From assembly GCF_029504745.1 (NCBI RefSeq), contig NZ_JAQFIQ010000012.1, positions 1 to 32,000 of the forward strand: DNA of 32,000 nt, written 5' to 3'. Source of the DNA: Breznakia sp. PF5-3 (GTDB lineage Bacteria > Bacillota_I > Bacilli_A > Erysipelotrichales > Erysipelotrichaceae). The position numbers were made by a program, and so were the translations under genes. This document shows positions 815-19,727 of this stretch, one piece after another. Below the pieces are notes generated by a model. The model was not told the DNA's origin. It did no database searches and worked only from the letters and a program-made list of their open reading frames with translations. The first letter of the stretch is position 1, and each line of letters begins with the position of its first letter.

Positions 815-2695
815 ATGAAAATGTTTATGAAAGCTTTTCGATTAACTGGAGATAGTAAAAATTATGAAGTAAATTTTAAAAGAGGTTTGAATTTTATATC
901 AGGTCCAACTTCTACAGGAAAATCGACAATACTTGAACTGATTAATTATGCATTAGGAGCAGATTCACACAAAAATTACATTGAAGTTCGTGAGAAATGT
1001 AAAGATGTTGAAATTGAAATTTTATTAAATGATACACTTTTTAGAATTCGAAGAAAATTATTTAGTCCAGATCTTCCAATTTTAGTAGAAATCTATGATA
1101 TAGATAGTAAGTCATTTGTTAAAAATGGTGTTTATTATGAAAATCCTGTGGATGGACAAGAAACATTATCTGATTTTTTATTATCAAAAATTGGGTTAGA
1201 TGGACTTACTATTGCAAACCAAAGATTCAGTTTTCGTGATTTATTTAAATATTCGTACTTAAAGCAAACAGAGATAGACAATGAGGACATATTTAATGCA
1301 GAAAAGAATTATATTTTAGATATTAAGCGAAAAGCGACATTTGAAATTGTATTTAGTATCTATAATAATCTAATTGGAGAACTTAAGGTAAGATTAAAAG
1401 AAAAGAAAGAAGAACTAAATAATGATAGAATTAAATACAATGGGATATCTGAATTTTTAAAAACGGCAGATATAAATGATTTTAACGAGATTGAAATTAA
1501 TAAAAACAAAATTATAGAAGAAATTAAAAACTTAAAAACTCAATTACTTAAAATCAAATCTAAATCTTATGAAGAGTCTGAGAATAAATATGTTAAGGAG
1601 TTAAATGAAATAGTTAGAACTAATAAATTAGAATTAATAAAATTAGACAAGCAATTAGATAATCAAAAACAATATATAAAAAAATTGTGTCAACTTTCAA
1701 ATCAATATGATAGAGATGTAGAAAAAATTGATGCAGCAAGGGTAGGAATTAATGAGATAAATAAATATGATTTTATATATTGTCCTAATTGCTTAAAACC
1801 TATAGCAAAACATGAGGGTATGGATTGTCAATTATGCGGTAATGAAATGAACGAAGTAATGGAAAATATATTATTACTTAAGTCAGAACGAAGTAGTGTA
1901 ATTAGAAAAAGGAATGAATTAGACAAACATATAAAAGAGCAAAGTGTAAAAAAGGAGTTTATCGAAAAAGAAAAGAAACAATTATTAGAAAAAATTGAGA
2001 TTAATAATCGCACAATTAATGAATTAACTGAGCAATTTATTAATCCCTATCTAGAAGAAATAAGCTTAATAAATTTAAAGATTGGAGAGAAGTATAAGGA
2101 ATTAGATGAATTAGAAAATAGTTTAAGATTTATTAAAGAATTAAATAGATTGACTATACTTTTAGAGCAAAAGAAAAAAGAAGTTGACGATCTAAATGAG
2201 CAAATTAAATCAAAATCAGCAGCTGTTGATAAAAAAGACATACTTCATAATTTGTCAAATAAGTTTAGTGATATTTTACAATCATTTAGGTTTCCAAAAT
2301 TAAGTGATTCATATATAAACACTACTAATTATTTACCCTATGTTAGAGGGAATAAGTATAATGATATCGGTAGTTTAGGAGCAGTTACTTTAATAACTAT
2401 GGCATATTATTTATCAATATTTATTGAATCAAAATCACCTGATTTTAATCATTTAAATTTATTAATGATAGATACTCCACGTAAAAACTTAGGGTCTTCA
2501 TCAACAGAAAAAGACTTTCAAGATGATGAAATATATTATGCAGTTATTCGTTATCTTATACAAATATGTAAAGATAATGAGAATGATATTCAATTGATTA
2601 TTGTTAATAATGGCTATCCTGAATTTTTACCTAAAGAAGATTTAATAATAGAGTTTTCATCAAGTGGAAAAAATGGATTAATAGATGATATTTAA
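815..2695 (+). CDS. SMC/Rad50-like ABC ATPase with a long coiled coil and a CxxC...CxxC hook (Lamassu LmuB / ABC-3C ATPase-like)
   Basis: - Walker A GPTSTGKST at nt 902-928.
- A K/E/L/N-rich heptad-like region of about 300 aa.
- CPNC-N13-CQLC at nt 1781-1837, mid coiled coil.
- C-terminal head with LNLLMIDTPRKNLG (Walker-B-like, nt ~2455-2490).
- 626 aa in total. Confidence 0.65.
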   Translation: MKMFMKAFRLTGDSKNYEVNFKRGLNFISGPTSTGKSTILELINYALGADSHKNYIEVREKCKDVEIEILLNDTLFRIRRKLFSPDLPILVEIYDIDSKSFVKNGVYYENPVDGQETLSDFLLSKIGLDGLTIANQRFSFRDLFKYSYLKQTEIDNEDIFNAEKNYILDIKRKATFEIVFSIYNNLIGELKVRLKEKKEELNNDRIKYNGISEFLKTADINDFNEIEINKNKIIEEIKNLKTQLLKIKSKSYEESENKYVKELNEIVRTNKLELIKLDKQLDNQKQYIKKLCQLSNQYDRDVEKIDAARVGINEINKYDFIYCPNCLKPIAKHEGMDCQLCGNEMNEVMENILLLKSERSSVIRKRNELDKHIKEQSVKKEFIEKEKKQLLEKIEINNRTINELTEQFINPYLEEISLINLKIGEKYKELDELENSLRFIKELNRLTILLEQKKKEVDDLNEQIKSKSAAVDKKDILHNLSNKFSDILQSFRFPKLSDSYINTTNYLPYVRGNKYNDIGSLGAVTLITMAYYLSIFIESKSPDFNHLNLLMIDTPRKNLGSSSTEKDFQDDEIYYAVIRYLIQICKDNENDIQLIIVNNGYPEFLPKEDLIIEFSSSGKNGLIDDI

Positions 2696-2722
2696 ACAAG
2701 CTTATTTCAAGAATAACCTTAG

Positions 2723-2860
2723 AAAATGATACTAAATTGATACTATTTTCTTGTCAAAAAACATATAGGTAGTATAATAACTATAGGAAATAGTAATAAA
2801 AGCAACCAAAACTAAACAAATATGTTTAACATTCATTCGGTATTATCGAGTGGGAATAGA
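2723..2860 (+). repeat. Direct repeat copy 1 (promoter plus conserved transcribed element), upstream of ktrB
   Basis: Hand alignment to 5277-5415 gives 13 differences, including one 1-nt indel, over about 138 nt. Contains hairpins taaaca-aata-tgttta (2813-2828) and cattcg-gtattat-cgagtg (2834-2852). Confidence 0.85.
2727..2778 (+). promoter_or_regulatory. Sigma-A-type promoter with an upstream hexamer direct repeat (copy 1)
   Basis: TGATACT at 2727-2733 and 2738-2744 (11-bp period). -35 TTGTCA 2751-2756, 16-nt spacer, -10 TATAAT 2773-2778. Confidence 0.6.
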
Positions 2861-3023
2861 AAAGACCGAAAAGATCTTTTATTTAATAAATATATTATTT
2901 TCTTTTTAATCCTTTGGTCATTTAATCGTTAAAAGCCTTCATTTTCATAGTCATTTTTTTTACCATTACTACTTAGTTGTTCATACTCTTGTAATATAAA
3001 GAAAAAGATGTAAAATATTAGAT

Positions 3024-4406
3024 ATGACTTCTACGCTAAAAAAAATAATAAAATTAGATGGGTTTTCCCCATCACAGAAGATAGCGATAAGCTTTGTAGT
3101 AGTAATTGTACTAGGAGCATTTGCTTTAATGCTACCAATTTCGAATGTTGATGGGAAGTATTTTTCATTTATTGATGCACTCTTTATGTCTACTAGCGCA
3201 ACATGTGTTACAGGACTCGCTGTTGTGCCTCCCGCTATACAGTTTACTACTTTTGGACAAGTGGTTCTTCTATTGCTAATTCAAATTGGTGGTTTGGGTT
3301 TGATGAGTATGGTTGCGAGCATTGCTCTTAGTATTAGAAAAAAACTCTCTATTCAAAACAAGTTAGCTATGAGAGAGATGTTAAATCAAACAAATATGTT
3401 GGATTTTAGAAAATTTCTTTTCGGAATCATTCGTTTTACTTTTGTTTTTGAAATTATTGGTACAATTATATTATCATTTGCATTTGTTCCTGAATATGGT
3501 TTGAAGGGGATTTATATCTCAATATTTACTTCAATTTCTGCATTCTGTAACGCAGGATTTGATATTATTGGTAGTAATAGTTTAGTGGAGTATGTAAATA
3601 ATCCAATTGTGAATTTTACAGTAATGATTTTAATTATTGCAGGTGGATTAGGGTTTATAGTATATTTTGATTTGAGAGATAAGTTCAAAGATTTTTTCAG
3701 AGGTAAGCTTTCATTTATAAGGTTAAAACAGCGACTGATGTTACAGACAAAAATTGTAATTGTTATTTCTGCGATTTTAATTTTTATTCCAGCATTACTA
3801 ATTTTTATTATAGAATTTAATAATCCTGCAACATTAGGTAATCTGGGAGTTGATGGTAAAATTTATGCTTCATTATTTAGTTCAGTAACTCTGAGAACCG
3901 CAGGGTTTGCAACGCTTGATTTTGCAGGTTTCTATCCAGTATCTCAATTTATTATGATAATTTGTATGTTTATTGGTGGCTCACCTGGAGGGACAGCAGG
4001 AGGTATCAAAACAACCACTCTTGCAATTATACTGATCAATGTTATTTGTAATATTCGAGGTCAAGAAAAGACATCAATTTTTCATCGTCATATATCACGC
4101 GATCTCATTGTACGATCCACGACGATATTGGTAATAAATCTTGGTGTATTATTCCTTGGGATTTTTGGGTTGCTAATAGTTTGTGATTTTGATTTTATAA
4201 CAATTATATTTGAAGCAGTATCAGCATTAGCAACTGTTGGATTAACTTTAGGGATTACAACACTATTACCAACAATTGCAAAGATAATCGTTGTTGTTTT
4301 AATGTATGTAGGTAGAATTGGTATTTTGACATTTTTAGTTTCAATTATAAGACAGGAAACTAAAAAATCTGTTGATTATGCTGAAGGAAATATTATGATT
4401 GGATAG
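3024..4406 (+). CDS. ktrB: KtrB/TrkH-family potassium uptake membrane subunit
   Basis: 460 aa, polytopic. Repeated pore-loop-like glycine motifs (IQIGGLG, FCNAGFD, TAGF, GGSPGGTAGGIKT) are typical of the Trk/Ktr family. Immediately followed by ktrA. Confidence 0.9.
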   Translation: MTSTLKKIIKLDGFSPSQKIAISFVVVIVLGAFALMLPISNVDGKYFSFIDALFMSTSATCVTGLAVVPPAIQFTTFGQVVLLLLIQIGGLGLMSMVASIALSIRKKLSIQNKLAMREMLNQTNMLDFRKFLFGIIRFTFVFEIIGTIILSFAFVPEYGLKGIYISIFTSISAFCNAGFDIIGSNSLVEYVNNPIVNFTVMILIIAGGLGFIVYFDLRDKFKDFFRGKLSFIRLKQRLMLQTKIVIVISAILIFIPALLIFIIEFNNPATLGNLGVDGKIYASLFSSVTLRTAGFATLDFAGFYPVSQFIMIICMFIGGSPGGTAGGIKTTTLAIILINVICNIRGQEKTSIFHRHISRDLIVRSTTILVINLGVLFLGIFGLLIVCDFDFITIIFEAVSALATVGLTLGITTLLPTIAKIIVVVLMYVGRIGILTFLVSIIRQETKKSVDYAEGNIMIG

Positions 4407-4416
4407 GAGAATAAAT

Positions 4417-5085
4417 ATGGTAAAGCAAAATAAACAATATGCAATATTGGGTTTAGGAATTTTTGGTTCTACAATAGCAAAAACTTTGAGCAATGCGAAT
4501 TGTGAAGTAATTGCTATTGATAAAGATATAGAGAGTGTACAACGCCTTGCAGATTGTGTCACAAGTGCAGTAAAAGGGGATATAACAGATATAGAAGTTT
4601 TAAGAAATGCTGGAGTGGGAGAATGTGATATTGCAGTTGTAGCAGTCGGTTCACATCTTGAAGAAAGCATTATGGCTGTTTTTAATGTACGGGAACTTGG
4701 CGTTCCTTTTGTTGTAGCGAAGGCAAAGAATAAACGCTATATGGAAGTTCTTAAAAAGGTAGGGGCACATAAAGTGGTACGTCCTGAAAAAGAAATGGGT
4801 GTAGTAACAGCAAAATCTCTGTTAAATGATAATATAATTGAGCGCATTGCATTTGATAATGATTACTCTGTAATAGAAATTAATACTCCCAAAATATGGG
4901 TCAATAAAACGCTGATTAATTTGAATTTGCGCGATCAATACGGGATCAATATTTTAGGAATTCGACGTCCAGATGAAAAAATGAATGTCACACCTTCTCC
5001 AGATTACATATTACATGCAGATGATCATATAGTATTAATTGCAGAATCCGAAAATTTAGAAAAACTAAATATACTTTTTAAGTAA
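4417..5085 (+). CDS. ktrA: KtrA/TrkA-family RCK (NAD-binding) regulatory subunit
   Basis: ORF track 4399..5085. I prefer ATG 4417 (AGGAGA 4405-4410). Rossmann motif ILGLGIFGSTIAKTL, with a C-terminal RCK_C-like region. Confidence 0.9.
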   Translation: MVKQNKQYAILGLGIFGSTIAKTLSNANCEVIAIDKDIESVQRLADCVTSAVKGDITDIEVLRNAGVGECDIAVVAVGSHLEESIMAVFNVRELGVPFVVAKAKNKRYMEVLKKVGAHKVVRPEKEMGVVTAKSLLNDNIIERIAFDNDYSVIEINTPKIWVNKTLINLNLRDQYGINILGIRRPDEKMNVTPSPDYILHADDHIVLIAESENLEKLNILFK

Positions 5086-5276
5086 AAATTTAATTATGCT
5101 TTTTTAAAATACAGAATTTATACATAAAATTAATGAATATAACATGGAACTAAAATAATAAATATAGTTGACAGTTTGAAAAGTTATTTTGTCATAAAAC
5201 TTCCAACTAATTATAAAAATGCACTAGTCTATAACACTCATTTATGTCATTGATCAAATCTAAACAATGCAGAATA

Positions 5277-5415
5277 AAAATGATACTAATTTGATACTGT
5301 TTTCTTGTCAAAAATCGTATAGGTAGTATAATAACTATAGAAAGTAGTAATAAAAGCACCCAAAAGTTAAACAAATATGTTTAATAATCATTCGGTATAA
5401 TCGAGTGGGAGTAGA
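5277..5415 (+). repeat. Direct repeat copy 2 (promoter plus conserved transcribed element)
   Basis: See copy 1. The same two hairpins are present (stem 1 is 7 bp here; loop 2 is gtataat). Confidence 0.85.
5281..5332 (+). promoter_or_regulatory. Sigma-A-type promoter with an upstream hexamer direct repeat (copy 2)
   Basis: TGATACT at 5281-5287 and 5292-5298 (11-bp period). -35 TTGTCA 5305-5310, 16-nt spacer, -10 TATAAT 5327-5332. Confidence 0.6.
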
Positions 5416-5455
5416 ATAGAAACTAAGAAAACGTCGATATTATCGGCGTTTTTTG
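5339..5455 (+). ncRNA. Candidate stand-alone small RNA, about 115 nt (promoter to intrinsic terminator), of unknown family
   Basis: The predicted start lies about 7 nt after the -10. There are two conserved hairpins, then a terminator at 5427-5455. The only ATG-initiated frame is 7 codons with no SD. Confidence 0.4.
5427..5455 (+). terminator. Rho-independent terminator
   Basis: aaaaCGTCGAT-att-ATCGGCGtttttt: a 7-bp GC-rich stem (one G-U pair) extended by A/U pairs, followed by a U-run. Confidence 0.75.
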
Positions 5456-5504
5456 TTGGTTTATAGGAGGTGTGACAATATTTTTGACAATACATTCAAA
5501 AAGT

Positions 5505-5714
5505 TCATCTTTTCTTTTTGGTGTTAATGGCTACTTCTTTTGGATAACTATCTTTCCATCATTGATATTCTTCTTGTGTTATTTTTCCCTGCTGGAGTTT
5601 CACATAAGCTACAAACCAATTGGAAATATCATCATAAATAGCATTAGGGAAAGGGGGAACTAGATAAACTTTTCCATTTATTTTAGCTGGTTTTAATTCA
5701 ATTATATTTTCAAG
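5505..5714 (-). pseudogene. 3' continuation of the XRE regulator, cut off by nonsense codons
   Basis: Hand translation in the same frame: ...HSLF*LENIIELKPAKINGKVYLVPPFPNAIYDDISNWFVAYVKLQQGKITQEEYQ*WKDSYPKEVAINTKKKR*. Stops fall at 5715-5717 (TAA), 5559-5561 (TGA) and 5505-5507 (TGA). Confidence 0.6.
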
Positions 5715-5948
5715 TTAAAACAAAGAGTGAATGATTGAGTAGTTATTATCATAACTAGGATCACTTAATGCAAAAACAGAGATATTCAGTGCATCTGCAA
5801 TTTTTTCTAATATGTCGCGAGATGGAATACGATTACCTAATTCATAATTACGAATAGAAGGTTCGCTAATTCCTACTTTTAAAGCAAGATCTTTCTGTGA
5901 TAACTTATTCTTCATTCTTTGATTTCGTATTTTTGTTCCTATTGTCAT
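5715..5948 (-). CDS. XRE-family HTH regulator, ended by a premature in-frame TAA (HTH domain retained)
   Basis: 77 aa. The HTH is LSQKDLALKVGISEPSIRNYELGNRIPS. The reading frame continues with homologous-looking sequence beyond the stop (see next feature). Confidence 0.75.
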   Translation of the reverse strand: MTIGTKIRNQRMKNKLSQKDLALKVGISEPSIRNYELGNRIPSRDILEKIADALNISVFALSDPSYDNNYSIIHSLF

Positions 5949-5954
5949 TATGAA

Positions 5955-6440
5955 TTATCCTCTCTCTTGTAGAGCGTACGACATGAGATATTCCTCATCA
6001 TTTTCACCTACAATTTTAAAGCCAACTCTTTTGTATAAGGAAAGAGCACGATTTTCTTTTTGAACTGCTAAAGCTACTTTTTTGTAGTGTTTCGATTGTA
6101 AAAGGGAAAGCATTTGTTCGAGTAGTTTTTGACCAATTTGCTTTCCTCTATACTTATCATAGACGGATATTGCTAATTCAGGTGTTTGAGAGTCTAAACT
6201 GCCATAGCCATTGATAATGCGTGCCCATACAACGCCAACAACCTTACCACTAATATCTGCACATAAACAATAATCATCGGGAAGCTTACCAAATTTATCA
6301 ATATATATTTGCAGTTCAGGTTTCTCTAAAATTGATCGAGGAAGCAAATTATCCTTATCTTTTTGAAAAATAGCTTCATAAAGAAAATCCTTTAATAGAA
6401 AATATTCATTTGGTTTTAATTCTCTGATTGAATAGTCCAT
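5955..6440 (-). CDS. GNAT-family N-acetyltransferase
   Basis: ORF track 5955..6476. I prefer ATG 6440 (AGAGAGG SD). The acetyl-CoA motif is RGKQIGQKLLEQMLSLL. Confidence 0.85.
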   Translation of the reverse strand: MDYSIRELKPNEYFLLKDFLYEAIFQKDKDNLLPRSILEKPELQIYIDKFGKLPDDYCLCADISGKVVGVVWARIINGYGSLDSQTPELAISVYDKYRGKQIGQKLLEQMLSLLQSKHYKKVALAVQKENRALSLYKRVGFKIVGENDEEYLMSYALQERG

Positions 6441-6648
6441 AAGGTAGCACCTCTCTTTCAAAAGTAAGTATAGCAAAGTAAAAGTAGGAATAAAAGTAAA
6501 AAAGTTTCAAAAATGAACTGTATAAATAATATGAATAAGGGAATTGAATAAAAAGTCTTGACAGTCATAAGTGAACTGATAACACACTGGTACAGTTCGA
6601 TATTGAACGGATAATATACATAACAGAAAAGAGGTGAAGAAACCATAA

Positions 6649-6855
6649 ATGACAAAGCATGTGTTTATGAATGATGACAAAGTTTCTCAATATCTAAACA
6701 TATCAAAACCGTTCGCATATAAAATAATCAAACAACTCAATAAAGAACTAGAGGCAAGAGGATATATAGTCATTGCAGGAAAAATAAACAAGAAGTTTTT
6801 TGAAGAAAGGATGTATGGAACGAATGAAACTGGTGAAGTAAAGGAGACAAGTTAA
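6649..6855 (+). CDS. Excisionase-type / MerR-like small DNA-binding protein of an integrative element
   Basis: 68 aa. VSQYLNISKPFAYKIIKQLNKELEARGYIVIAGKINKKFFEERMYG resembles the small HTH proteins that precede integrases in Firmicutes ICEs (from memory). Confidence 0.6.
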   Translation: MTKHVFMNDDKVSQYLNISKPFAYKIIKQLNKELEARGYIVIAGKINKKFFEERMYGTNETGEVKETS

Positions 6856-6947: not shown

Positions 6948-7163
6948 ATGTCAATGAAACTTAGTAATTCACTATATATACACCTTCATAGAATTGATAT
7001 TGAAGGAAATGAATTATATGTTCAACTAGTAGATGATTACAAAAAACAAAGAAATATCACAGAAGAGTTGAAAGTTAATAAACCATTTGAATGGGTTAGA
7101 GAAATGAATAATATAAATAATTGTATTGAAGAATTAATTATAAAAGAAATAATTAATATTTAG
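6948..7163 (+). pseudogene. 3' fragment of a TnpV-like (Tn4451-type accessory) gene
   Basis: 71 aa. ...ELKVNKPFEWVREMNNINNCIEELIIKEIINI matches the C-terminal signature of TnpV-like proteins as I recall them. The N-terminal half is missing. Confidence 0.45.
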
Positions 7164-7375: not shown

Positions 7376-7831
7376 ATGAATAACAATGACGTACATAGTT
7401 TATCACACAGTAAATGGTGCTGTAAATACCATATAGTATGGGCACCGAAATACAGGAGGAAAGTATTTTACGATAGTAAAAGACTAGAAATAGGAAAGAT
7501 AATAAGAGAACTTTGTGAATGGAAAGGGGTAAACATACTAGAAGTAGAAGTATGTATAGATCATATACATATATTAGTTGAAATCCAACCAAAATATAGT
7601 ATTTCAGGATTTATGGGATATTTGAAAGGAAAAAGTAGCCAAATAATATATGAAAAATGGGGGAATATGAAATTCAAGTATCGAGGTCGCTCTTTCTGGT
7701 GTAGAGGATACTATGTAGATACAGTAGGGAAAAATACAAAGAAGATAACGGAGTATATACAAAATCAGTTGAAAGAGGACCGGGAGGCAGAACAACTAAC
7801 AATGGATTTGAAGGACCCATTTGGAAAATAA
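7376..7831 (+). CDS. tnpA: IS200/IS605-family Y1 (HUH) transposase TnpA
   Basis: 151 aa. KYHIVWAPKYRRKVF, HUH motif DHIHILV, and a C-terminal tyrosine region ITEYIQNQ. Confidence 0.95.
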   Translation: MNNNDVHSLSHSKWCCKYHIVWAPKYRRKVFYDSKRLEIGKIIRELCEWKGVNILEVEVCIDHIHILVEIQPKYSISGFMGYLKGKSSQIIYEKWGNMKFKYRGRSFWCRGYYVDTVGKNTKKITEYIQNQLKEDREAEQLTMDLKDPFGK

Positions 7832-7946: not shown

Positions 7947-8825
7947 TTATATCTCTACAAAATAAGGACGAAGTTGTTCAATTTGTTTCCTATCTAAGGT
8001 AATAATAAAATGTGATTCATCAAATCTAGGTAGGTTAGATAAATCCAATACTTCTTTTAATGTATTGAATAGTATATGCCCTTCTAAATGGGGTTCACCA
8101 GCAAAAGATACAATTCCAATGTACCAATCATTTATGTCTAAATCATCTGACATAATAGGAAGTGCAGGTTCGTCTGGGAAAATAGAATCAACACCTTCTG
8201 ACAAAGTGAAAAATCCAACTAACTTATCATTGTCTATTTTATAAACTTTAGCTTTCGCATAGTATAAATCCTGATTTTGCTTCTCATGTAAATATTCCTC
8301 AAAAGCAATTACTTTGTTTTCTTCATCTAAATCTATGATGCTTTGTATAAAGTTTTCTTCCACATGAAGTGGATAAAGCGCACCAAAGGTATAACCAAAT
8401 TTTTTATCTTTCACAAAAGAATCCAATACATTACCAACCCAGTTCATTGTGTAGTTTACTTTTTCAGGAATATCTTCAAGCGTTAGGGTTTCTCCATCAT
8501 GATCGAATTTTTGAATACCCATCATTTTACATAATCGTTTTGTACATTCATAAAAATCTTCAATATCATGATAAGTACAAGGTACATTCAAATTCAGATT
8601 GATTGTTCTTTCACTACTTATATACTGTAAGCTAAATCCTCTACCTATTTTTTTAGGATCATAGAAAATAATATATGTATCTTCAAATTCACCTTCAAAA
8701 TCACTTAGAATAAATCCTACATCACTAATGCCATATGCATAACCATGAAGTGCATTCGTGATATCCGCAAAGGTGAATTTCTTTTTTATTAATTTTGTTT
8801 GTTTTAAATGTATATCTAGTGACAT
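7947..8825 (-). CDS. Hypothetical cytoplasmic protein (possibly DUF4299-like; unverified)
   Basis: 292 aa, with no TM segment or signal peptide. Overall resemblance to DUF4299 proteins is from memory only. SD GGAGGG lies upstream. Confidence 0.6.
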   Translation of the reverse strand: MSLDIHLKQTKLIKKKFTFADITNALHGYAYGISDVGFILSDFEGEFEDTYIIFYDPKKIGRGFSLQYISSERTINLNLNVPCTYHDIEDFYECTKRLCKMMGIQKFDHDGETLTLEDIPEKVNYTMNWVGNVLDSFVKDKKFGYTFGALYPLHVEENFIQSIIDLDEENKVIAFEEYLHEKQNQDLYYAKAKVYKIDNDKLVGFFTLSEGVDSIFPDEPALPIMSDDLDINDWYIGIVSFAGEPHLEGHILFNTLKEVLDLSNLPRFDESHFIITLDRKQIEQLRPYFVEI

Positions 8826-8887
8826 AAAACCCTCCTGTTAATGTTCGCTTTGTTGATTTAACTATATCATAATTTTTATCCACATAA

Positions 8888-8914
8888 AGAAAAAAGTCCA
8901 AATTGCATTGGACT
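8888..8914 (-). terminator. Rho-independent terminator after the ABC permease gene
   Basis: The stem pairs 8895-8901 (+ strand AGTCCAA) with 8908-8914 (+ strand TTGGACT). On the minus strand it is followed by TTTTTC. Confidence 0.65.
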
Positions 8915-8923
8915 ATAATACGT

Positions 8924-10495
8924 TTATTCAGCAGCATATGCGTTTCCATTCATCATTGGTGAACAGATGTAGAATATAAGTAAACTTAGTGCTAAATTAA
9001 ATACTATAAGGGTGGGAATTAATACGGTAATAGTTTGACTAAAATCACCTGTCATTTTAAATGCCAAGTAAGCAATACCACCACTAGGTAAGCAGATAAC
9101 TACCATTACAAGCATATGTAGCATGGATTCAATAAGTTTATTTCCTCTACTTTTTAGTAATCGAGTTGACAATACAACTCCTGCATAGAAGACAGGAATA
9201 AATGATAAAGTGATTAGAATACCAATGAGCGTTTCCGTTAGTTTCAAATCAACGAAGATAAAACCAATTAGTATCATTGTAACTGCAAAGAGTGTTGATT
9301 TTAATGCAGGAATCAATAATGAGTAAAGCATTTTTTTGATTGGTTTATCAGGAATAAAATAAATATAATTATTTTTAAGATCATCACTTAGAGTAGAATT
9401 TCCTACGGAGTTCATCAAATAAAATATTAATAACCCAAAGAATACATAAACATTTGGATTAATCATTAACGTAAATACTGCTAAGGCGATAAAACTATAT
9501 AAGTCTTGTCTACCAATAAAAGAACGAGTTTTTTTCATAATTAGAAAGTTCTTAGAAAGAATTGCACCACTTAATTGCTTATAGTTAATTGTTACATCAT
9601 GTATTTTTTCTTCTTTTGATTCAATTCCAGCCATCGCTTTTTTATAGTAATCACTAAAGTCTATAGCATCAATCATCGCTTGCTCATAGAAGTAACCTTT
9701 AACGTGTGTTAGTAAAGCTGCTAATATAATATCAATTACAATAAATGCAGCTACTACAATCAAAACAATAAGGGTATCATTTTGATAAAAACCAAACATT
9801 GCAGTTTTAATCCAACCTAAGATGGGAATAAAATCGAAATCATTTGTATACGTGAAATTCACAAAAATATCAGTGAAATTAAAACTACTTTGAAAATAAC
9901 TATATATTGCATAAGCTACTAAAATAATGAAAATACATAATCCAATCCAACGCTGTGTGTTTCCTTTTTTTTCTTTAATCATATCTTTAATATAGAAGTA
10001 TTGTAGTAATACTAAAATGATATAGTTATAAAGAGCTGTAATCAGAAAAGCAAAAAGAATGTAGGTAATTGGCATAATAGCCATCATTGATATAATCATC
10101 ATTGGAGATACTATACTTATTAAACTTAATATAAAGGAATCAAACATTGTTTCAACTGATAAGTATGATAGTATTTGACGATTTGAGAAAGGACCTACAA
10201 ATAAATAGTAAGAATCTTCCTCAAAAAACAATGCTTTCTTTTTTTGAAATAAGGTAATTAGATTTAAGAAAGTGGAAAATCCAATTACAAATAAAGTAAA
10301 TAGTGAATAAGTCAAAAGATCCATTACAGGTTTATCTCTTGTATCAAATACTGGGAAAAACATGCTTGCAAACACCAGCAATGAAAGCAGTGTTGCTATT
10401 GCTGAAGATGGTTTCGCAAAGATACTTCTTACTTTTGCTTTTTTCTTAGTGAAAAATAGTTTAAATAAGTTCTTCATGTTCTTTGTCCTCACCAT
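8924..10495 (-). CDS. Large polytopic permease of the 'putative ABC exporter' type
   Basis: 523 aa with more than 10 predicted hydrophobic helices. It overlaps the 3' end of the ATPase gene. An alternative start is ATG 10477. Confidence 0.7.
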   Translation of the reverse strand: MVRTKNMKNLFKLFFTKKKAKVRSIFAKPSSAIATLLSLLVFASMFFPVFDTRDKPVMDLLTYSLFTLFVIGFSTFLNLITLFQKKKALFFEEDSYYLFVGPFSNRQILSYLSVETMFDSFILSLISIVSPMMIISMMAIMPITYILFAFLITALYNYIILVLLQYFYIKDMIKEKKGNTQRWIGLCIFIILVAYAIYSYFQSSFNFTDIFVNFTYTNDFDFIPILGWIKTAMFGFYQNDTLIVLIVVAAFIVIDIILAALLTHVKGYFYEQAMIDAIDFSDYYKKAMAGIESKEEKIHDVTINYKQLSGAILSKNFLIMKKTRSFIGRQDLYSFIALAVFTLMINPNVYVFFGLLIFYLMNSVGNSTLSDDLKNNYIYFIPDKPIKKMLYSLLIPALKSTLFAVTMILIGFIFVDLKLTETLIGILITLSFIPVFYAGVVLSTRLLKSRGNKLIESMLHMLVMVVICLPSGGIAYLAFKMTGDFSQTITVLIPTLIVFNLALSLLIFYICSPMMNGNAYAAE

Positions 10496-11174
10496 TTAAT
10501 TCAAAAAACAGTTCTTTGAGTGATTTATCTTTTAACTCATTACGTTCAATATCGGCTAATACATGCCCCTGTTTCATAATGATTGCATGATCCCAAACAT
10601 CATCCACCATATCAATGATATGGGTACTCATCAGAATACTAACACCGTTATCTTTTAGTGTCTTTAATATTTGTAAAGTATCCTGAATACTGTTAGGATC
10701 CAAACCCATCATAGGTTCATCTACCAGCAATGCTTGAGGATTTGTCATAAGAGCTAAAATCATTGATAACTTTTGACGCATTCCTTTTGATAATTCTTTT
10801 GCGATGGTCTTTTTCTTTTCCATCAGTTTGAATAATGTAAGATATTTATCAGCAATTTGTTGGTAGTTATCAATCTGATAAGCATTACCAATAAAATCTA
10901 TATGTTCTTGGATTGTAAGTAAGTCATATAATACTGGTGTCTCTGGAATATATCCAAAACGTTTTTTCGCTTCTACACTCATATTATCGAAACTGCATAT
11001 TTTAATACTTCCTTTGAATTTTAATAACCCAATGATACTTTTTATTGTTGTACTTTTACCTGCACCATTTGATCCTAATAAAATAGTTATTTCTCCTGGT
11101 TTTGCAACTAATGATACATCATTTGCTCCAATTACTTTTCCATAGTCTTTTGTAAGATTTTTAACCTCTATCAT
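10461..11174 (-). CDS. ABC transporter ATP-binding protein
   Basis: Walker A GSNGAGKST, signature LSKGMRQKL, Walker B LLVDEP, H-loop STH. SD GAGGAG. Confidence 0.95.
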   Translation of the reverse strand: MIEVKNLTKDYGKVIGANDVSLVAKPGEITILLGSNGAGKSTTIKSIIGLLKFKGSIKICSFDNMSVEAKKRFGYIPETPVLYDLLTIQEHIDFIGNAYQIDNYQQIADKYLTLFKLMEKKKTIAKELSKGMRQKLSMILALMTNPQALLVDEPMMGLDPNSIQDTLQILKTLKDNGVSILMSTHIIDMVDDVWDHAIIMKQGHVLADIERNELKDKSLKELFFELNGEDKEHEELI

Positions 11175-11215
11175 AATTTTTTCTCCTCAATATACATCTA
11201 GTCTATCAATTCTAT

Positions 11216-11258
11216 ATAAAAAGAATACAAATCTGTCCTAAATGGTAGATTTGTATTC
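11216..11258 (-). terminator. Rho-independent terminator after the response-regulator gene
   Basis: A 12-bp perfect stem, GAATACAAATCT (11223-11234) with AGATTTGTATTC (11247-11258). On the minus strand it is followed by TTTTTAT. Confidence 0.8.
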
Positions 11259-11269
11259 CTAAATTACTT

Positions 11270-12010
11270 CTATAATGATAATTCTTTGAGGAGTTTCTTT
11301 CCTTTTCTGGATAATAGACAGAAGGTATTATTTTTCAATTCTACCTTATTATCTGCAAGATAAATGGTTTGTATATTATCTGTGTTAACTAGAAACGAGC
11401 GATGAATTCGTAAGAATTGAGTGCCGCCAATCGTCTCTTCAATTTCTGATAGTTTTCCAAAGAACTCCAATGTTTCCTGTTCTGCATGCATGATAATTTT
11501 ATGTTTGGAAGCAGATGTTTCAAAGAACATAATTTCCTTAATTGGAATATGATAGACACGATCTAATATTTTAATTTGATAATAAGGGTTGTAACTATCG
11601 TTTTCATTTGACAAGCGCTCCTGAATGCTTTCTAGACACACAGCGATACGTTCTTTGATTGTATCAAGATTACCCTTTACAATGTAATCCATCGCTTCAA
11701 TACGATGCCGAAAGGTCTCAAATGACAACTCTTCATGAGAAGTTATGAAGATAATAAAACCTCTTGGATCAAGTTCACGAATTTTCTTAGCTAAGGTAAA
11801 ACCAGTATAAGTATCATCATTTAAATCAACATCCAAGAAGTATATATTTGATACGTGATTACCAGCAATTTCATCCACAATTTTGGTTGGCTTATTTGTT
11901 GCAAGACCAATCTGCATATCCAGATTATTAATCGTTATATAGTTATCAATTGTTGTTTCAATAAAAGAGCACATTTTTGCCTCATCTTCACATATATATA
12001 CAGATATCAT
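11270..12010 (-). CDS. LytTR/AgrA-family response regulator (REC + LytTR DNA-binding domain)
   Basis: ORF track ..12013. The second ATG (12010) sits 6 nt after AGGAGG. REC acidic residues (CEDE, FLDVDL). C-terminal LytTR signature FLRIHRSFLVN. Confidence 0.9.
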   Translation of the reverse strand: MISVYICEDEAKMCSFIETTIDNYITINNLDMQIGLATNKPTKIVDEIAGNHVSNIYFLDVDLNDDTYTGFTLAKKIRELDPRGFIIFITSHEELSFETFRHRIEAMDYIVKGNLDTIKERIAVCLESIQERLSNENDSYNPYYQIKILDRVYHIPIKEIMFFETSASKHKIIMHAEQETLEFFGKLSEIEETIGGTQFLRIHRSFLVNTDNIQTIYLADNKVELKNNTFCLLSRKGKKLLKELSL

Positions 12011-12020
12011 CATATACCTC

Positions 12021-13856
12021 CTATTTCTGAATGGTTAGTTCTTGTATAAATAAATTATCACGAATCTTGGTACGAGTTATCACATTGCTATAAGCACCAA
12101 TAATTTTCTTATAATTGAATAATCCAATTCCACGATCTTTGCCTTTACTGGAATATCCATATTCATAAATGTTTTTTAAATTTGTATCAACATTGCATAA
12201 TACATTATTGATATTAATATAAATAGAATCACCTTCATCTAAAAAGATAATCGAAATTTTAGCGTTATCACTATTTATAGATTCTTCAATTGCATTATCT
12301 AATAGGATACCCAGAGAGCGAATCAAATCAATATTCGCTATAATTGCAGAGTGAATTGGATAAATTACCTCTAGTTTAAATGGAATCTTCATTTGAATCA
12401 TCTGTGAACATTTCATTAAAAGTAAATTCTTAACCTCTGGTATTTTAATATTGTGAAGTGCTTTCAAACTTGAGTGATAATTTGAATTATTAGGCAAGCT
12501 AGTAATTGGTTTGCCAATAAATGCTTCAATTTTCTTAATTGTTGTATTATTTACTTCATTAGATAGATAGTTCAATAATGTTTGATAGTATTCGTGCATG
12601 GCAACAATTGAGTGTTTAGCAGTTGATGTCATTTCGAAATAGTATTGTTGAGAAAGCAATAAATCTTGTTGCAATTGTTCATTTTGTAAGTTGATAATGA
12701 TGGTTGAAATCCCACAGATAAAAACAGGAATTAACAACAATAAAATAATGATAACAAAAATAACAAATTGAAATAGATTTTTTTCAATATTATGATACAA
12801 CATCTGAGCTGTTACCATACCTAAAATACTACAGAAGAAAATAATAAAGAATCGATGGTATTGAAAGAAATTATGAAACGCTTTTTTTAGGTTTTCCTTT
12901 GTTAAGAAAGAACGAATAGGGTAAAGATTTACATTCAATTGTTTTGAATTATCATCCAAGTTAAAGGATTGCGATTTAGATAAAGCTTTTTCTACTATAT
13001 CATGTAATTGTTCAGTATTTGTGTTTTTATATTCTAATAGAAAAGAAGTAATCAAGTTTTTAATATCATGTTTCAAGGAATATAATTCTATTTGCATTTC
13101 ACTAAGCTCATTGATATGAAAGTTTTGTTGATCAACAATTGCTTTCTGTAATTCTAGTTTCCTTCGATTATTTTGCATGATAATCACAATGATGAAGATA
13201 ATTGTAATTAATAGTAAGAATACAAATCCAATAATAAGATTTGCTTCAGCAGAAAGGGGAAGGATTGGATAAAAAACAAATATCATTTCATGCATATTCC
13301 ACCCCCCTACACAAATAATCGTTGTGATAAGTTTCCTTTGTTTTGTTTTGAATAATAATTCTGTATGAGTTGAAAGCGAATATTTAGTAAAAATATGTGC
13401 TAATGCTAGTCCAAATAATGATGAGATAGAATGTATGATTATATTATAGTAGGATGCTGCAATTCCTTCTATTGGTATAGAAAAATGATTTATGATTAAA
13501 AGGCTTGAATAGGAAACCATAGTATGAAATGTATTCATACAATACAAAGTAAACCCAAGAGCAGAAAGAATTTTCCATGCATTGTGATAATAACGATATA
13601 AGATAATTGCTATAAAGATGAATTGGATCGAATAAGTGGCTAAGGCAAAGGTGAAAGGATATTTTACATAAAGAATGTCATATAAATCTGTCAAAAGAAA
13701 AATGTAGTTGAAAGCAATCTGTATAATTACAAACACAATCGTACTTAAAAACCATCCTTTTTTATGAAAGATAGGTGATAAAAGCTTCATTGTGCTATAT
13801 ATCCATGATGCGCCAAAGATTGCAGATATAAAGAATCCTTCTAGCCAAATATTCAT
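12021..13856 (-). CDS. AgrC/HPK10-like GHKL sensor histidine kinase with an extra internal 2-TM module
   Basis: - 611 aa.
- Polytopic N-terminus (aa 1-227).
- H-box-like LKHDIKNL (H263, nt 13068-13070).
- Two further TM helices (aa ~333-388).
- A second H-box-like AMHEYYQTL (H421, nt 12594-12596).
- N-box LLDNAIEE (aa 518-525) and G-box SKGKDRGIGL. Confidence 0.85.
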   Translation of the reverse strand: MNIWLEGFFISAIFGASWIYSTMKLLSPIFHKKGWFLSTIVFVIIQIAFNYIFLLTDLYDILYVKYPFTFALATYSIQFIFIAIILYRYYHNAWKILSALGFTLYCMNTFHTMVSYSSLLIINHFSIPIEGIAASYYNIIIHSISSLFGLALAHIFTKYSLSTHTELLFKTKQRKLITTIICVGGWNMHEMIFVFYPILPLSAEANLIIGFVFLLLITIIFIIVIIMQNNRRKLELQKAIVDQQNFHINELSEMQIELYSLKHDIKNLITSFLLEYKNTNTEQLHDIVEKALSKSQSFNLDDNSKQLNVNLYPIRSFLTKENLKKAFHNFFQYHRFFIIFFCSILGMVTAQMLYHNIEKNLFQFVIFVIIILLLLIPVFICGISTIIINLQNEQLQQDLLLSQQYYFEMTSTAKHSIVAMHEYYQTLLNYLSNEVNNTTIKKIEAFIGKPITSLPNNSNYHSSLKALHNIKIPEVKNLLLMKCSQMIQMKIPFKLEVIYPIHSAIIANIDLIRSLGILLDNAIEESINSDNAKISIIFLDEGDSIYININNVLCNVDTNLKNIYEYGYSSKGKDRGIGLFNYKKIIGAYSNVITRTKIRDNLFIQELTIQK

Positions 13857-16697: not shown

Positions 16698-17687
16698 ATG
16701 AAAAAATATTTAAGTATAGTATTGATGATAACAATACTAGCATTAGTGGGGTGTTCCTCGGAGGAAGCGGCTAAAGTTATTACCGTAACAGATAATCAAT
16801 TTGATTCGCAAAGTTACCATAATGCACTCGCAAAAATTGTTGTAGAAAATGGGTTTGATGGCTATGAGCTTGAAGTGTCCACTGGTTCATCTACTATGAA
16901 TTGGCAGTCAATTATTTCAGGAGATATTGATTTAGACATTGAAAGTTGGACTGGTAATGTTGCTACATATGAAAAAGATAAAGAAAACGGAGACATTGTT
17001 GATATAGGTGTATTAGTACCTGATAGTCAGCAAGGTTTTTATGTTCCAAGATATGTAGTTGAAGGGGATAGTGAAAGAGGGATTAAAGCAGTAGCTCCCG
17101 AGTTAAAAACAGTAAAAGATTTAGAAAAATATCCTGATTTATTTGTAAATGATGAGAATCCTGATAAAGGAAGAATTTATGGTGGGATAGCAGGTTGGAT
17201 GATTGATGAAACTTTGTATGCTAAATTTCTATATCATGGATTAGATGCACAATATGAGTACTTTCGTTTAGGTAGTGAGTCAACTTTATTTGCATCATTG
17301 GTAGCAGCATACAACAAAGGGGAACCATGGGTTGGTTATTGTTATGAACCAACATGGGTAGCTGGAAAATTGGATTTGATTCGTCTTACAGATGCTCCAT
17401 ATGACCCTGAAACATATCACAAAGGAGGCTCTGATTTCCCTTTACAAGAATTAAAGATTGTAAGTAACAAATCTTTTAAAGATGATTATCCTGAGTTGGT
17501 AGATTTCTTTAGTAATTATCAGACTGGTAGTGATATTGTAAATGAAGCACTGGCATACATGGATGACAAACAAGCAACTTATGAAGAGGCAGCTATATGG
17601 ACGTTAAAAGAACATCCAGAACTATTGGATGCATGGTTAAATAAAGAACAAGCAGACAAAGTAAAAGAATATATAGGTAAAAAATAA
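16698..17687 (+). CDS. opuAC: Glycine betaine/proline-betaine ABC transporter substrate-binding lipoprotein
   Basis: 329 aa. Lipobox LALVGC. OpuAC-like periplasmic-binding fold inferred from sequence and operon context. Confidence 0.85.
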   Translation: MKKYLSIVLMITILALVGCSSEEAAKVITVTDNQFDSQSYHNALAKIVVENGFDGYELEVSTGSSTMNWQSIISGDIDLDIESWTGNVATYEKDKENGDIVDIGVLVPDSQQGFYVPRYVVEGDSERGIKAVAPELKTVKDLEKYPDLFVNDENPDKGRIYGGIAGWMIDETLYAKFLYHGLDAQYEYFRLGSESTLFASLVAAYNKGEPWVGYCYEPTWVAGKLDLIRLTDAPYDPETYHKGGSDFPLQELKIVSNKSFKDDYPELVDFFSNYQTGSDIVNEALAYMDDKQATYEEAAIWTLKEHPELLDAWLNKEQADKVKEYIGKK

Positions 17688-18562
17688 TGTCTCTCTTGGA
17701 AATCGCATCTTCATTTCCAGAAGAATGGAAGGTTAATATAGGAGATGCTGTGGATAATTTTATTAAATCTATCAGTATAAAATATCAGGCATTCTTTGAT
17801 GCAATCAAAGCAGCAGGTATTTGGATTGTCAATTCTATCAATAGTATACTTATGATGATACCATGGTGGTTATTTATTATTTTAATTGTTGCATTAACAT
17901 ATTATGTAACTAAAAAAGTAAGAACATCATTATTATATGGGGGATTGATTACACTTATAGGTTTTTTTGGATTATGGTCACATATGATGGAAACGTTGAG
18001 CATTGTAATTACTTCAGTAGCAATATCATTATTATTAGGATTTCCATTAGGTGTCCTAATTGCATTAAGTAAGAAAGCAGAAAAAATTATAAGACCTATT
18101 TTAGATATGATGCAAACAATGCCAACCTTTGTCTATTTGGTTCCTGCAGTTATTTTATTTGGAGTAGGAAAGGTACCAGCAATTATGGCAACAACAATTT
18201 ATTCTATTGTTCCTATGATTCGAATGACAAATCATGGAATATCACATGTGGATAAAGAAGTGATTGAAGCAGCAAGAGCTTTTGGTTCAACAACAATGCA
18301 AACCTTATTAAAGGTGCAGATACCACAATCATTATCGACTATCATGACAGGGATGAACCAGACATTGATGATGGCGATGTCTATGGTCGTTACATGTTCG
18401 CTAATTGGTGCAAATGGATTGGGAATGGAAATTCTTGTTGCCACAAATCGAACGGAAATGGGAAAAGCTTTATTGCCAGGACTTGCAATCGTTTTTCTTG
18501 CGATTATATTAGATCGGCTAACCCAAGGAATAGTGAAAAAGAGTGAGAAGATATATGAATAA
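17687..18562 (+). CDS. opuAB: Glycine betaine ABC transporter permease
   Basis: 291 aa, polytopic. TAATG overlap with opuAC. ProW/OpuAB-like EAA-loop region (EAARAFGST). Confidence 0.9.
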   Translation: MSLLEIASSFPEEWKVNIGDAVDNFIKSISIKYQAFFDAIKAAGIWIVNSINSILMMIPWWLFIILIVALTYYVTKKVRTSLLYGGLITLIGFFGLWSHMMETLSIVITSVAISLLLGFPLGVLIALSKKAEKIIRPILDMMQTMPTFVYLVPAVILFGVGKVPAIMATTIYSIVPMIRMTNHGISHVDKEVIEAARAFGSTTMQTLLKVQIPQSLSTIMTGMNQTLMMAMSMVVTCSLIGANGLGMEILVATNRTEMGKALLPGLAIVFLAIILDRLTQGIVKKSEKIYE

Positions 18563-19727
18563 TCATGATATTATACGCGTAGAATCAATAAGTAAAGTTT
18601 TTAAAATGAATAAAACTGCACAAAAGTTAATTGATAAAAAAGAAAGCAAAGATATAATTTATGAAAAATCAGGAGCGATTGTCGCTTTACAGGATGTTAG
18701 TTTTAATGTAAAGCGAGGCGAGACCTTTTGTATAATTGGACTATCTGGTTCAGGGAAATCAACGCTTATACGTTGTCTTATTGAACTTGTAAAACCAACA
18801 AGTGGAAAAATTTATATGAATGATATTGATGTTTTATCTTTATCAAAAAAAGAATTGCTTGAATTTAGACGATAACAGGTATCGATGATATTTCAAAGTT
18901 TTGGTTTGATGTCCCATCGTGATGTTATTGGAAATGTAGCATATGGTCTTGAGGTAAAAGGTGTACCCAAAGAAGAACGTTTAGAAAAAGCGAAAGAAAT
19001 GATTTCTATGGTTGGTTTAGATGGATTTGAGCATGAAAGAATTGCAAATTTATCAGGTGGAATGAAACAGCGAGTTGGAATTGCACGAGCACTTGCCAAT
19101 AAGACAGAAATTCTTCTTATGGATGAGCCATTTTCAGCGTTAGATCCATTAGTAAGAAAAGAAATGCAATTTGAACTTTTAAAGATTCAAAAGAAACTAA
19201 ATAAAACAATTGTTTTTATTACGCATGATATGGATGAAGCATTCAAATTAGGAGATCGTATAGCGATTATGCAAGATGGGAAGATTATTCAAATTGCAAC
19301 GCCTGAAGAAATGTGTGAAAACCCAGCAAATGAATATGTAAGAAGTTTTATTGATAATACGGATAAAACAAAAATATTCAGTGCTAAAAATGTAATGATC
19401 AATCCAAACTGTGTGGCAAAATATAATGATTTTCCAATTATTGCTTTAAGAGAAATGAAGAATGCTCAAGTATCAAGTGCTTATGTGGTAGATGAACAAA
19501 TGCATTTAAAGGGAATTATTACATTAGAAGATACGATAAGAGCAAAAAATGAGAATTTACAAATTGAAGATGTATTGATTGAAATATTTTCTGTATCATT
19601 AGATACATATATTACAGATTTGATTGATACAATGACAATATCTAAATATCCACTAGCAGTTATTGATGAAGAAAAGCAATTACAAGGAATTCTAACAAAA
19701 GTAAATGTTTTATCTTTATTAAAGTAG
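18555..19727 (+). pseudogene. opuAA: Glycine betaine ABC transporter ATPase with tandem CBS domains, interrupted by one in-frame TAA
   Basis: The two ORFs (18543..18875 and 18885..19727) are in the same frame. The sequence reads ...ELLEFRR*QVSMIFQSFGLM, with TAA at 18873-18875 where ProV/OpuAA proteins have K. Walker A GLSGSGKST lies before the stop; LSGGMKQR and LLMDEP lie after it. Confidence 0.8.

Follow-up and report, generated by a model that had tools for sequence, protein, structure and literature searches.

On a 32,000-nucleotide stretch of the Breznakia sp. PF5-3 genome (contig NZ_JAQFIQ010000012.1, positions 1 to 32,000; here referred to as the window), the K+ transporter genes ktrB and ktrA are bracketed by two same-strand copies of a non-coding module of approximately 145 bp. 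This arrangement raises the question of what the module is, and whether it has anything to do with potassium. The initial annotation of this DNA had considered a cis-regulatory leader or riboswitch-like element of ktrBA with an orphan second copy, a small RNA (sRNA) gene whose promoter and 5' part were duplicated when ktrBA was acquired, and loss of ktrBA by recombination between the repeats. We find the repeats best explained, at a probability of roughly 0.55, as two copies of a junction module resembling the attachment (att) region of integrative (mobilizable) islands in gut Firmicutes, with ktrBA as captured cargo similar to a cis-mobilizable element (CIME). The module itself is previously undescribed, and it is conserved outside this genome, though in mobile-element contexts.

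The two copies align as direct repeats on the plus strand over 144 columns (core 2723-2865 against core 5277-5420, global alignment). Of the 14 differences between the cores, 13 are substitutions and one is a 1-nt indel at 5366; a hand count between 2723-2860 and 5277-5415 had earlier given 13. A repeat search divided the match into segments of 90% identity (2723-2816/5277-5370) and 88% identity (2808-2865/5363-5420), and faint similarity extends the copies to 2710-2882 and 5271-5443. These are the only two copies in the window; shuffled sequences gave no matches to long sub-patterns, and a weak match at 6481-6554 was rejected as a third copy for its unconvincing alignment. Each copy contains a pair of 8-bp direct repeats with an 11-bp period, TGATACTA-aat-TGATACTA at 2727-2745 just upstream of the -35 box in copy 1 and TGATACTA-att-TGATACTG at 5281-5299 in copy 2, which are putative protein-binding sites of the arm type or operators. 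The near-consensus promoters reported before were recovered by a promoter scan as TTGTCA-16-TATAAT (11/12 consensus) at 2751-2778 and 5305-5332, with predicted transcription start sites near 2785 and 5339. The initial annotation missed the TGATACTA pair, a further repeat pair (TGACAATA) described below, and a proximal promoter of ktrB.

Downstream of the promoter in each copy lies the palindrome TAAACAAATATGTTTA (hairpin 1, hp1; 2813-2828 and 5368-5383), a 16-mer identical in both copies and in the locus L017. It is followed by a second hairpin (hp2; 2833-2853 and 5388-5408), which in copy 1 reads TCATTCGGT-att-ATCGAGTGG and has nine pairs, three of them G.U; because of the G.U pairs it forms on the plus strand only. 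The 3' arm of hp2 overlaps a junction box, CGAGTGGGAATAG at 2847-2859 and CGAGTGGGAGTAG at 5402-5414, for which the family consensus is CGAGTKKGARTAG. The stems of hp1 and hp2 are the same in both copies except for an extra hp1 closing pair in copy 2 (C2812 versus T5367), and the differences between the copies are confined to loops and linkers, as had been described from the sequence alone. By a hypergeometric estimate, the probability that 14 differences would spare the 30 stem positions is p ~0.03, which is therefore modest evidence only. A small peptide encoded within the module was considered and rejected, since the reading frame is 36 aa in copy 1 versus 7 aa in copy 2, is not conserved and has no Shine-Dalgarno (SD) sequence. 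Each module also holds a promoter-like sequence on the minus strand, TTGACA-17-TAGTAT (10/12; 2757-2729 and 5311-5283), in which the repeat supplies the -10 and the -35 region is shared with the promoter of the plus strand; the site in copy 2 would yield an antisense RNA to the 3' end of ktrA.

Copy 2 is a short non-coding unit bounded by the promoter at 5305-5332 and a strong intrinsic terminator with a 13-pair stem at 5426-5454, one nucleotide from where it had been placed before (5427-5455). The RNA predicted for this unit is ~120 nt long, with a folding z-score of -4.3 that is mostly due to the terminator. The terminator, which is bidirectional in sequence, is predicted to end the copy-2 transcript, and it probably also ends ktrBA transcription, as the scan called no terminator between the ktrA stop codon and copy 2, and serves a convergent GNAT-HTH (helix-turn-helix) operon on its other side. 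Beyond it, at +59 from the junction box, stands the second direct-repeat pair, TGACAATA-tttt-TGACAATA (5473-5492). Copy 1 is followed by a weak hairpin with a U tract (2860-2885) that the scan did not call as a terminator; it resembles a degenerate form of the terminator in copy 2, so that read-through toward ktrB is likely. A strong AGGAGG box followed by a 63-aa hydrophobic open reading frame (ORF) also lies past the copy-2 terminator (5465-5663; start GTG at 5472 or TTG at 5484). This ORF (5472-5663) has no Pfam match, is absent from the public annotation and has a start that overlaps the TGACAATA pair, and it is probably spurious.

Relatives of the module were found in metagenomes. The locus L017, a weak collinear relative found independently of TAAACAAATATGTTTA, contains this palindrome and, exactly 25 nt further on, GAATAG. 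Metagenomes were scanned with the pattern TAAACAAATATGTTTA-N{23,27}-GARTAG, so that hp1 and GARTAG are fixed in the resulting sample. The scan recovered 56 loci, with an internal gap of 26 nt in 46 of them, 25 nt in nine and 27 nt in one; a gap concentrated at 26 nt is not the uniform spread expected of chance. Flanking sequences could be aligned across the loci with one exception, L072, a probable chance match. An nhmmer profile of the family recovered both window copies at E ~1e-15 to 1e-16 (2.5e-16 for copy 1 and 1.4e-15 for copy 2). The family shares a plan that consists, in order, of an 8-bp direct-repeat pair with an 11-bp period, a promoter and an A-rich stretch, followed by hp1, the hp2 region, which varies, and the CGAGTKKGARTAG box. 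The repeat sequence varies by subfamily and is matched within each pair: TGGCAACA, TGATAGCA and TGATACCA in different subfamilies and TGATACTA in the window; TGCTACTAA is another repeat that occurs as a pair. The promoter lies downstream of the repeats in the window type and upstream of them in types A and B, where a -35/-10 pair or extended -10 occupies a conserved position just upstream of the repeats despite different left flanks. Two same-strand copies per contig also occur in L063 (4.4 kb apart, with copy A carrying a two-substitution variant of the hp1 palindrome), in L069 (one full and one partial copy), and on contigs OLOZ01000533 (L034 and L058) and UESG01000237 (L037 and L039).

Searches of other collections for the module returned nothing comparable. 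A gathering-threshold Rfam search of the module from 13 diverse family loci had no match, and the exact hp2 sequence gave a single chance match inside a Kaistia coding sequence among ~185,000 GTDB species genomes and none in JGI metagenomes. Both window copies and a type A member found no match by BLAST among phages and plasmids or in PLSDB, scans of IMG/VR with the promoter core and with a relaxed pattern found none, and a search of the literature with signature sequences retrieved unrelated primers only.

Clustering of the flanks yielded 25 left-flank classes and 26 right-flank classes, but only nine classes of the unit itself; five of the left classes occur with two or more right classes, and four of the right classes with two or more left classes. 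Variants of the unit go with the left flank and the right flank reassorts. The position of this exchange can be read to the base by comparing L033 and L043, which match completely up to and including GAATAG and have no similarity beyond it; the module's 3' edge is therefore an exact joining point. Homology between loci ends directly after the CGAGTKKGARTAG box across the family, so that the module has an exact right boundary and a fuzzy left one. The commonest right flank did not turn up again downstream of other right flanks within the sequence examined, a pattern that would have pointed to simple insertion. Although hp1 has the 6-6-6 form of a core-type site, crossover at hp1 was rejected at least for the L033/L043 event, as 31-32 nt of identity continue past it there.

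The genes on either side of this joining point are of different kinds. Upstream genes have the same orientation as the module and end 80-280 nt before hp1. They encode varied cargo, including ThsB-TIR, CHAT, FRG, DUF2971, AAA_13 and ParE/antitoxin proteins, and in the window an ABC-3C system; no K+ transporter was present among the identified upstream neighbors of other modules. On the downstream side a convergent tyrosine integrase (domains Arm-DNA-bind_4, SAM_3 and Phage_integrase; Arm-DNA-bind_4 was found in the integrase of L035) is often encoded, with genes for an XRE regulator and a MobA/MobL relaxase after it; this is the gene set of an integrative and mobilizable element (IME), of which some loci keep remnants. 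The integron attC site was rejected as a model for the junction, which has GARTAG instead of GTTRRRY and is approached by convergent integrases with an arm-binding domain.

Beyond the joining point, the tails of the module share a geometry and not a sequence. A terminator-like hairpin ending near +45 was found in 25 of 34 distinct tails (control 13.7 +/- 3.1), with unrelated sequences, and 18 of the 34 contained a TG-initiated 8-mer repeat pair with an 11-bp period, mostly at +59 to +61 (0.8 +/- 0.9 in shuffles). Copy 2 in the window fits this plan, with its terminator at +12 to +40 and the TGACAATA pair from +59. The module's own repeat pair is positioned ~145 nt upstream of the junction, and in L059, next to an integrase, the TGATACCA repeat stands on both sides of the module, the sole locus where this was seen. 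Two other readings of the TGGCAACA repeats were rejected: a sigma-54 promoter in TGGCAACA-N3-TGGCAACA, where the spacing is off by one and other repeat types are without GG/GC, and a 'MATxWQ' peptide, which is not conserved in other subfamilies. A similar pair occurs elsewhere in the window, at 6558-6597, where a TTGACA box is followed by TGATAACAcacTGGTACAG, a TG-N6-type repeat pair with an 11-bp period that is near-identical to the pair of L045. This site precedes a 68-aa ORF (6649-6855) and tnpV (6948-7163) and suggests that repeat pairs may double as operators.

Between the module copies (2866-5276) there are only ktrB (TrkH family, 460 aa, 3024-4406, plus strand) and ktrA (TrkA_N and TrkA_C domains, 222 aa, 4417-5085, plus strand, with its own SD), and no integrase or transfer genes. 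In the relatives L005-L009, whose KtrB is 61-87% identical to that of the window (87% in L005, 66% in L006 and 61% in L008), the module is absent upstream of ktrBA, and the upstream spacers are 40-100 nt long. The context of ktrBA in L005-L007 is a housekeeping one (dnaB, dnaI, pfk, pyk, AI-2E, rubrerythrin, ktrB, ktrA), and in L008 and L009 the genes follow a DAGK-family gene. Nucleotide homology between the window and L005 (81%) runs from 2987, at the proximal -35 of ktrB, to 5088. Homology to the canonical locus thus covers ktrBA and its own promoter only, and we therefore infer that this block was captured.

The ktrB gene has a promoter of its own. In the window the promoter scan placed TTGTAA-16-TAAAAT at 2989-3016 (plus strand), and this promoter is conserved in L005, L006 and L008. 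In an upstream alignment of these four Erysipelotrichia-like loci, TTGTAA or TTGAAA is followed after 16-17 nt by TAAAAT or TAGAAT, and the -10 ends exactly 7 nt before the ATG in all four (site at 160-199 in L005), with no SD in any of them. The ktrB mRNA would accordingly be leaderless, as judged from the sequence, which would explain the missing SD. The distance from copy 1 to the ktrB ATG, described earlier as a leader of ~240 nt without a convincing SD, is ~239 nt, and there is no SD. The leader, taken as 246 nt, is no more structured than shuffled sequences (z = +0.3). The strongest alternative pairing found in it by eye was a 6-nt TTCGGT/ACCGAA complement. No Rfam family, including the c-di-AMP riboswitch (ydaO-yuaA, RF00379), was matched in the whole window at the gathering threshold (Rfam 15), in line with the annotators' failure to see ydaO segments, and a permissive search of 2600-5600 returned noise only (E >= 2), centered on the terminator. 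With a conserved promoter abutting ktrB, relatives that lack the module and some 25 unrelated contexts for the module elsewhere, the suggestion of a cis-regulatory leader or riboswitch for ktrBA does not hold.

Taken as a junction, the module and its tail would act as a lambda-type att region. The phage lambda attP comprises P-arm sites, a core and P'-arm sites, and its integrase has an N-terminal arm-binding domain. Similarly, repeat pairs at a pitch of ~10-11 bp stand ~145 bp to one side and ~60 bp to the other side of the module junction, and the adjacent integrases possess an arm-DNA-binding domain, with their genes pointing toward the site. The repeat pairs could then be arm-type sites or binding sites of a recombination directionality factor (RDF), and the CGAGTKKGARTAG box the core and crossover point. 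There are also differences from attP: the repeats differ between the two sides at most loci, a core inverted repeat was not found, a GC-rich terminator hairpin lies between the junction and the downstream repeats, and a promoter lies within the region.

The arrangement in the window has a counterpart in the CIMEs and accretion arrays described for ICESt1/ICESt3 of Streptococcus thermophilus and for streptococcal IMEs (PMC5704250). CIMEs are decayed elements that have lost integration and transfer genes and kept attL and attR, and incoming IMEs integrate into their att sites to form tandem accretion arrays (PMC5704250). As in those arrays, ktrBA is cargo without integration or transfer genes between att-like direct repeats, with defense cargo to its left and a putative IME remnant to its right, and related module loci have a tyrosine integrase, XRE regulator and relaxase next to the repeat and join one left segment to different right segments at an exact point. 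Islands would thus integrate side by side at the module, leading to tandem accretion, and the window would hold an array of ABC-3C cargo, module 1, ktrBA, module 2, tail and remnant (HTH, GNAT, 68-aa ORF, TnpV, IS200). Recombination between the copies could delete or move the ktrBA segment, which lacks an integrase, and the earlier proposal that the repeats may mediate its loss fits this picture. Expression of ktrB would come mainly from its own promoter, without a leader, with a possible addition by read-through from copy 1; copy 2 should produce a ~120-nt RNA, any role of which would concern the island and not K+. Unlike the streptococcal case, the repeat in the window does not stem from the 3' terminus of a housekeeping or tRNA gene but is a 145-bp island-borne unit with a promoter and hairpins; each copy is full length, and the att function is putative.

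Several observations weigh against this interpretation. Neither a recombination event nor an empty site or excised circle was observed; no strain or empty site lacking ktrBA was present among the five contigs that carry the locus, and an empty-site search through the flanking proteins (ABC-3C ATPase and HTH) obtained none. No inverted core-type site could be identified at the junction, and the first 10-15 nt of the tails have neither a consensus nor an inverted repeat. The unit pair and the tail pair differ in sequence at most loci, which would fit hybrid junctions between islands and equally operators for different regulators. Many right partners are without an integrase, among them the commonest class (with a PHP gene) and the HTH/GNAT class of the window and L073. 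The DNA after copy 1 has no canonical tail of terminator and repeats, and the weak similarity between the copies reaches ~20 nt past the box, which suggests that homologous or illegitimate recombination may instead lie behind the ktrBA insertion; the duplication in the window could equally be a product of homologous recombination between modules that had diverged. The family sample is biased by a search pattern that fixed hp1 and GARTAG. Lastly, the positionally conserved promoter, the terminators in 25 of 34 tails and a plus-biased helix in type B point to a function at the RNA level.

These last observations form the basis of the alternative that survives best, a possible although clearly less probable one, in which the module is an island-borne sRNA gene family whose 3' end is used by islands as an integration target, with copy 2 intact and copy 1 a partial duplicate. 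An island regulator would bind the repeat pairs as operators or activator sites, and the RNA would target island genes such as int or act in trans; the position of the pair at the promoter-like site that precedes the 68-aa ORF and tnpV suits an operator. Genomic islands integrate into small RNA genes (tRNA, tmRNA/ssrA), and the module resembles these targets in being a promoter-to-terminator unit at an island boundary whose 3' part is replaced by island DNA with a new terminator; it differs in that it is absent from Rfam, stands beside variable cargo instead of core genes and is apparently carried by the island. The near-consensus promoters in the window copies, the conserved position of the -35/-10 pair in types A and B, the unrelated sequences of the terminator-like hairpins and the pairing of hp2 on the plus strand only all agree with a transcribed unit, and the module is probably transcribed, to judge from these motifs.

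Structural evidence for such an RNA is divided. In type B, the L031 type and L059, hp1 sits at the tip of a longer helix, the outer part of which varies in sequence but remains complementary (for example AAGAUAU/AUAUCUU, UUAUCGU/ACGGUAA and GCUUAACU/AGUUAAGC); this enclosing helix was significant against shuffles in nine representatives (p <= 0.024) and weaker on the minus strand. However, the window copies have no enclosing helix, and the only family-wide structure predicted by RNAalifold was hp1, which is invariant in the scan set as fixed by the search pattern and so holds no covariation evidence. The position of hp2 is not conserved, and in type A wobble-compatible changes make up about half of those in the 5' arm by our own count, as neutrality predicts. 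Because the order of promoter and repeats differs by type, the 5' part of the RNA would not be conserved, and the invariant 16-bp near-palindrome is more like a protein-binding site in DNA. An RNA-level pairing of the repeats with the 3' box was also considered and rejected as inconsistent across subfamilies. The earlier idea of an sRNA gene with its promoter and 5' part duplicated at the acquisition of ktrBA is close to the data. A function of the module as an RNA is putative; the junction role at the DNA level has broader support.

An unlikely but related possibility is that Firmicutes capture genes through a cassette-like system in which the module serves as the recombination unit, with exchange at the CGAGTKKGARTAG boundary by nearby tyrosine integrases. 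Units such as ABC-3C plus module, ktrBA plus module, TIR plus module and toxin-antitoxin plus module would be the cassettes, and the transcript or the folded plus strand could aid recognition or licensing of the site. If this were true, the system would be a functional analogue of integron cassettes and attC, with another site and another type of integrase, that assembles defense and fitness genes in gut bacteria.

Still less probable is a small non-autonomous mobile element, either a miniature inverted-repeat transposable element (MITE) or a palindrome-associated transposable element (PATE) derived from IS200/IS605, that was moved in trans and inserted independently on each side of ktrBA and at many other sites. 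The module is a discrete unit with flanks that vary on both sides over ~25 contexts, it has strand-specific hairpins, several contigs carry multiple same-strand copies, and an IS200-type Y1 transposase gene (7376-7831, next to TnpV) lies 2 kb away in the window. Against this, variants of the unit travel with the left flank as the right flank reassorts, the left boundary is fuzzy and the right one exact, and the orientation relative to the co-directional upstream genes and the distances to the downstream terminator and repeat pair are constant; terminal inverted repeats and target duplications are absent, and the associated recombinases are tyrosine integrases and not Y1 transposases. A ktrBA leader sensing K+, osmolarity or c-di-AMP is the least credible of the explanations and largely refuted by the distribution of the module. 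In its favor, copy 1 is upstream of ktrB and co-oriented, the stems are conserved in both copies, and read-through of the weak terminator-like hairpin is plausible. The likeness of the module to the c-di-AMP (ydaO/kimA) riboswitch of Bacillus ktr/kimA is one of position only: it has no match in sequence or structure and no specificity for K+ genes, and a ktrB promoter lies downstream of it. No convincing alternative pairing of the conserved RNA with a terminator was seen.

Preferring the att-like junction module, we regard the K+ riboswitch as a false lead and ktrBA as horizontally captured cargo with a leaderless promoter in an island accretion array. Across metagenomes from the human gut and elsewhere, the module marks the exact point where defense or fitness cargo meets integrase modules in at least 25 contexts. 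As an att region, it would offer a sequence handle to delimit a family of defense-carrying islands, together with cis-mobilizable segments, of Erysipelotrichia and Clostridia; with a functional transcript, it would represent a new island-borne sRNA family.

The ktrBA locus of the window is set in accessory DNA. To the left of copy 1, which begins 27 nt past the stop codon of the ATPase gene, the window contains an ABC-3C-type defense locus (1-2695) cut by the contig start, with MC2 at 351-812 and a 626-aa SMC-like ATPase at 815-2695. The closest homologues of this ATPase (68-69% identical) occur in [Clostridium] innocuum near relaxase and RhuM genes, without a full module. In L017 and L075, a TGATACT/TGATATT repeat pair follows the ATPase stop codon at the same position as in the window. 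To the right of copy 2 are genes for an XRE-type HTH protein (5715-5948, minus strand) and a GNAT acetyltransferase (5955-6440, minus strand), both read toward the module with the HTH gene after GNAT, then the 68-aa ORF, TnpV and the IS200 transposase, and no integrase is present in this part. The GNAT-HTH pair recurs beside the module in L073 (GNAT 50% identical, E = 1e-58; HTH 38%) and could be toxin/antitoxin-like or regulatory; no homologue of the HTH protein of the window was on record.

Modules at other loci showed further variations. In L031, L034 and L066 a truncated second module of another subtype lies 60-110 nt past the first, after its terminator, reading TATAAT-N10-TGATACCA-ata-TGATACCA-TTTCGG..TATAGG and cut by an IS91-like fragment; stacking nearly back to back is therefore possible. 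L027 has a tandem array of ~6 copies of GCGATAAA-type units 90-160 nt upstream of hp1, before a TGATAGC-type module, and L025, L027 and L042 share a AGGAGGTG box with a mini-ORF (ATG CGC TGA) overlapping the first repeat. A Clostridiales-1 RNA (RF01699, 115 bits) is encoded at 5210-5380 on the plus strand of L019, a member of the commonest human-gut class, ~1 kb from the module; this unrelated RNA was the only match in the Rfam search of the family loci. Further along the window, 7947-13856 on the minus strand encodes a DUF4299 protein, an ABC exporter, a LytTR response regulator and a GHKL histidine kinase. An OpuA-like glycine-betaine ABC transporter (OpuAC, a permease and an ATPase with CBS domains; 16698-19727) constitutes a second osmoprotection system, ~12 kb from ktrBA.

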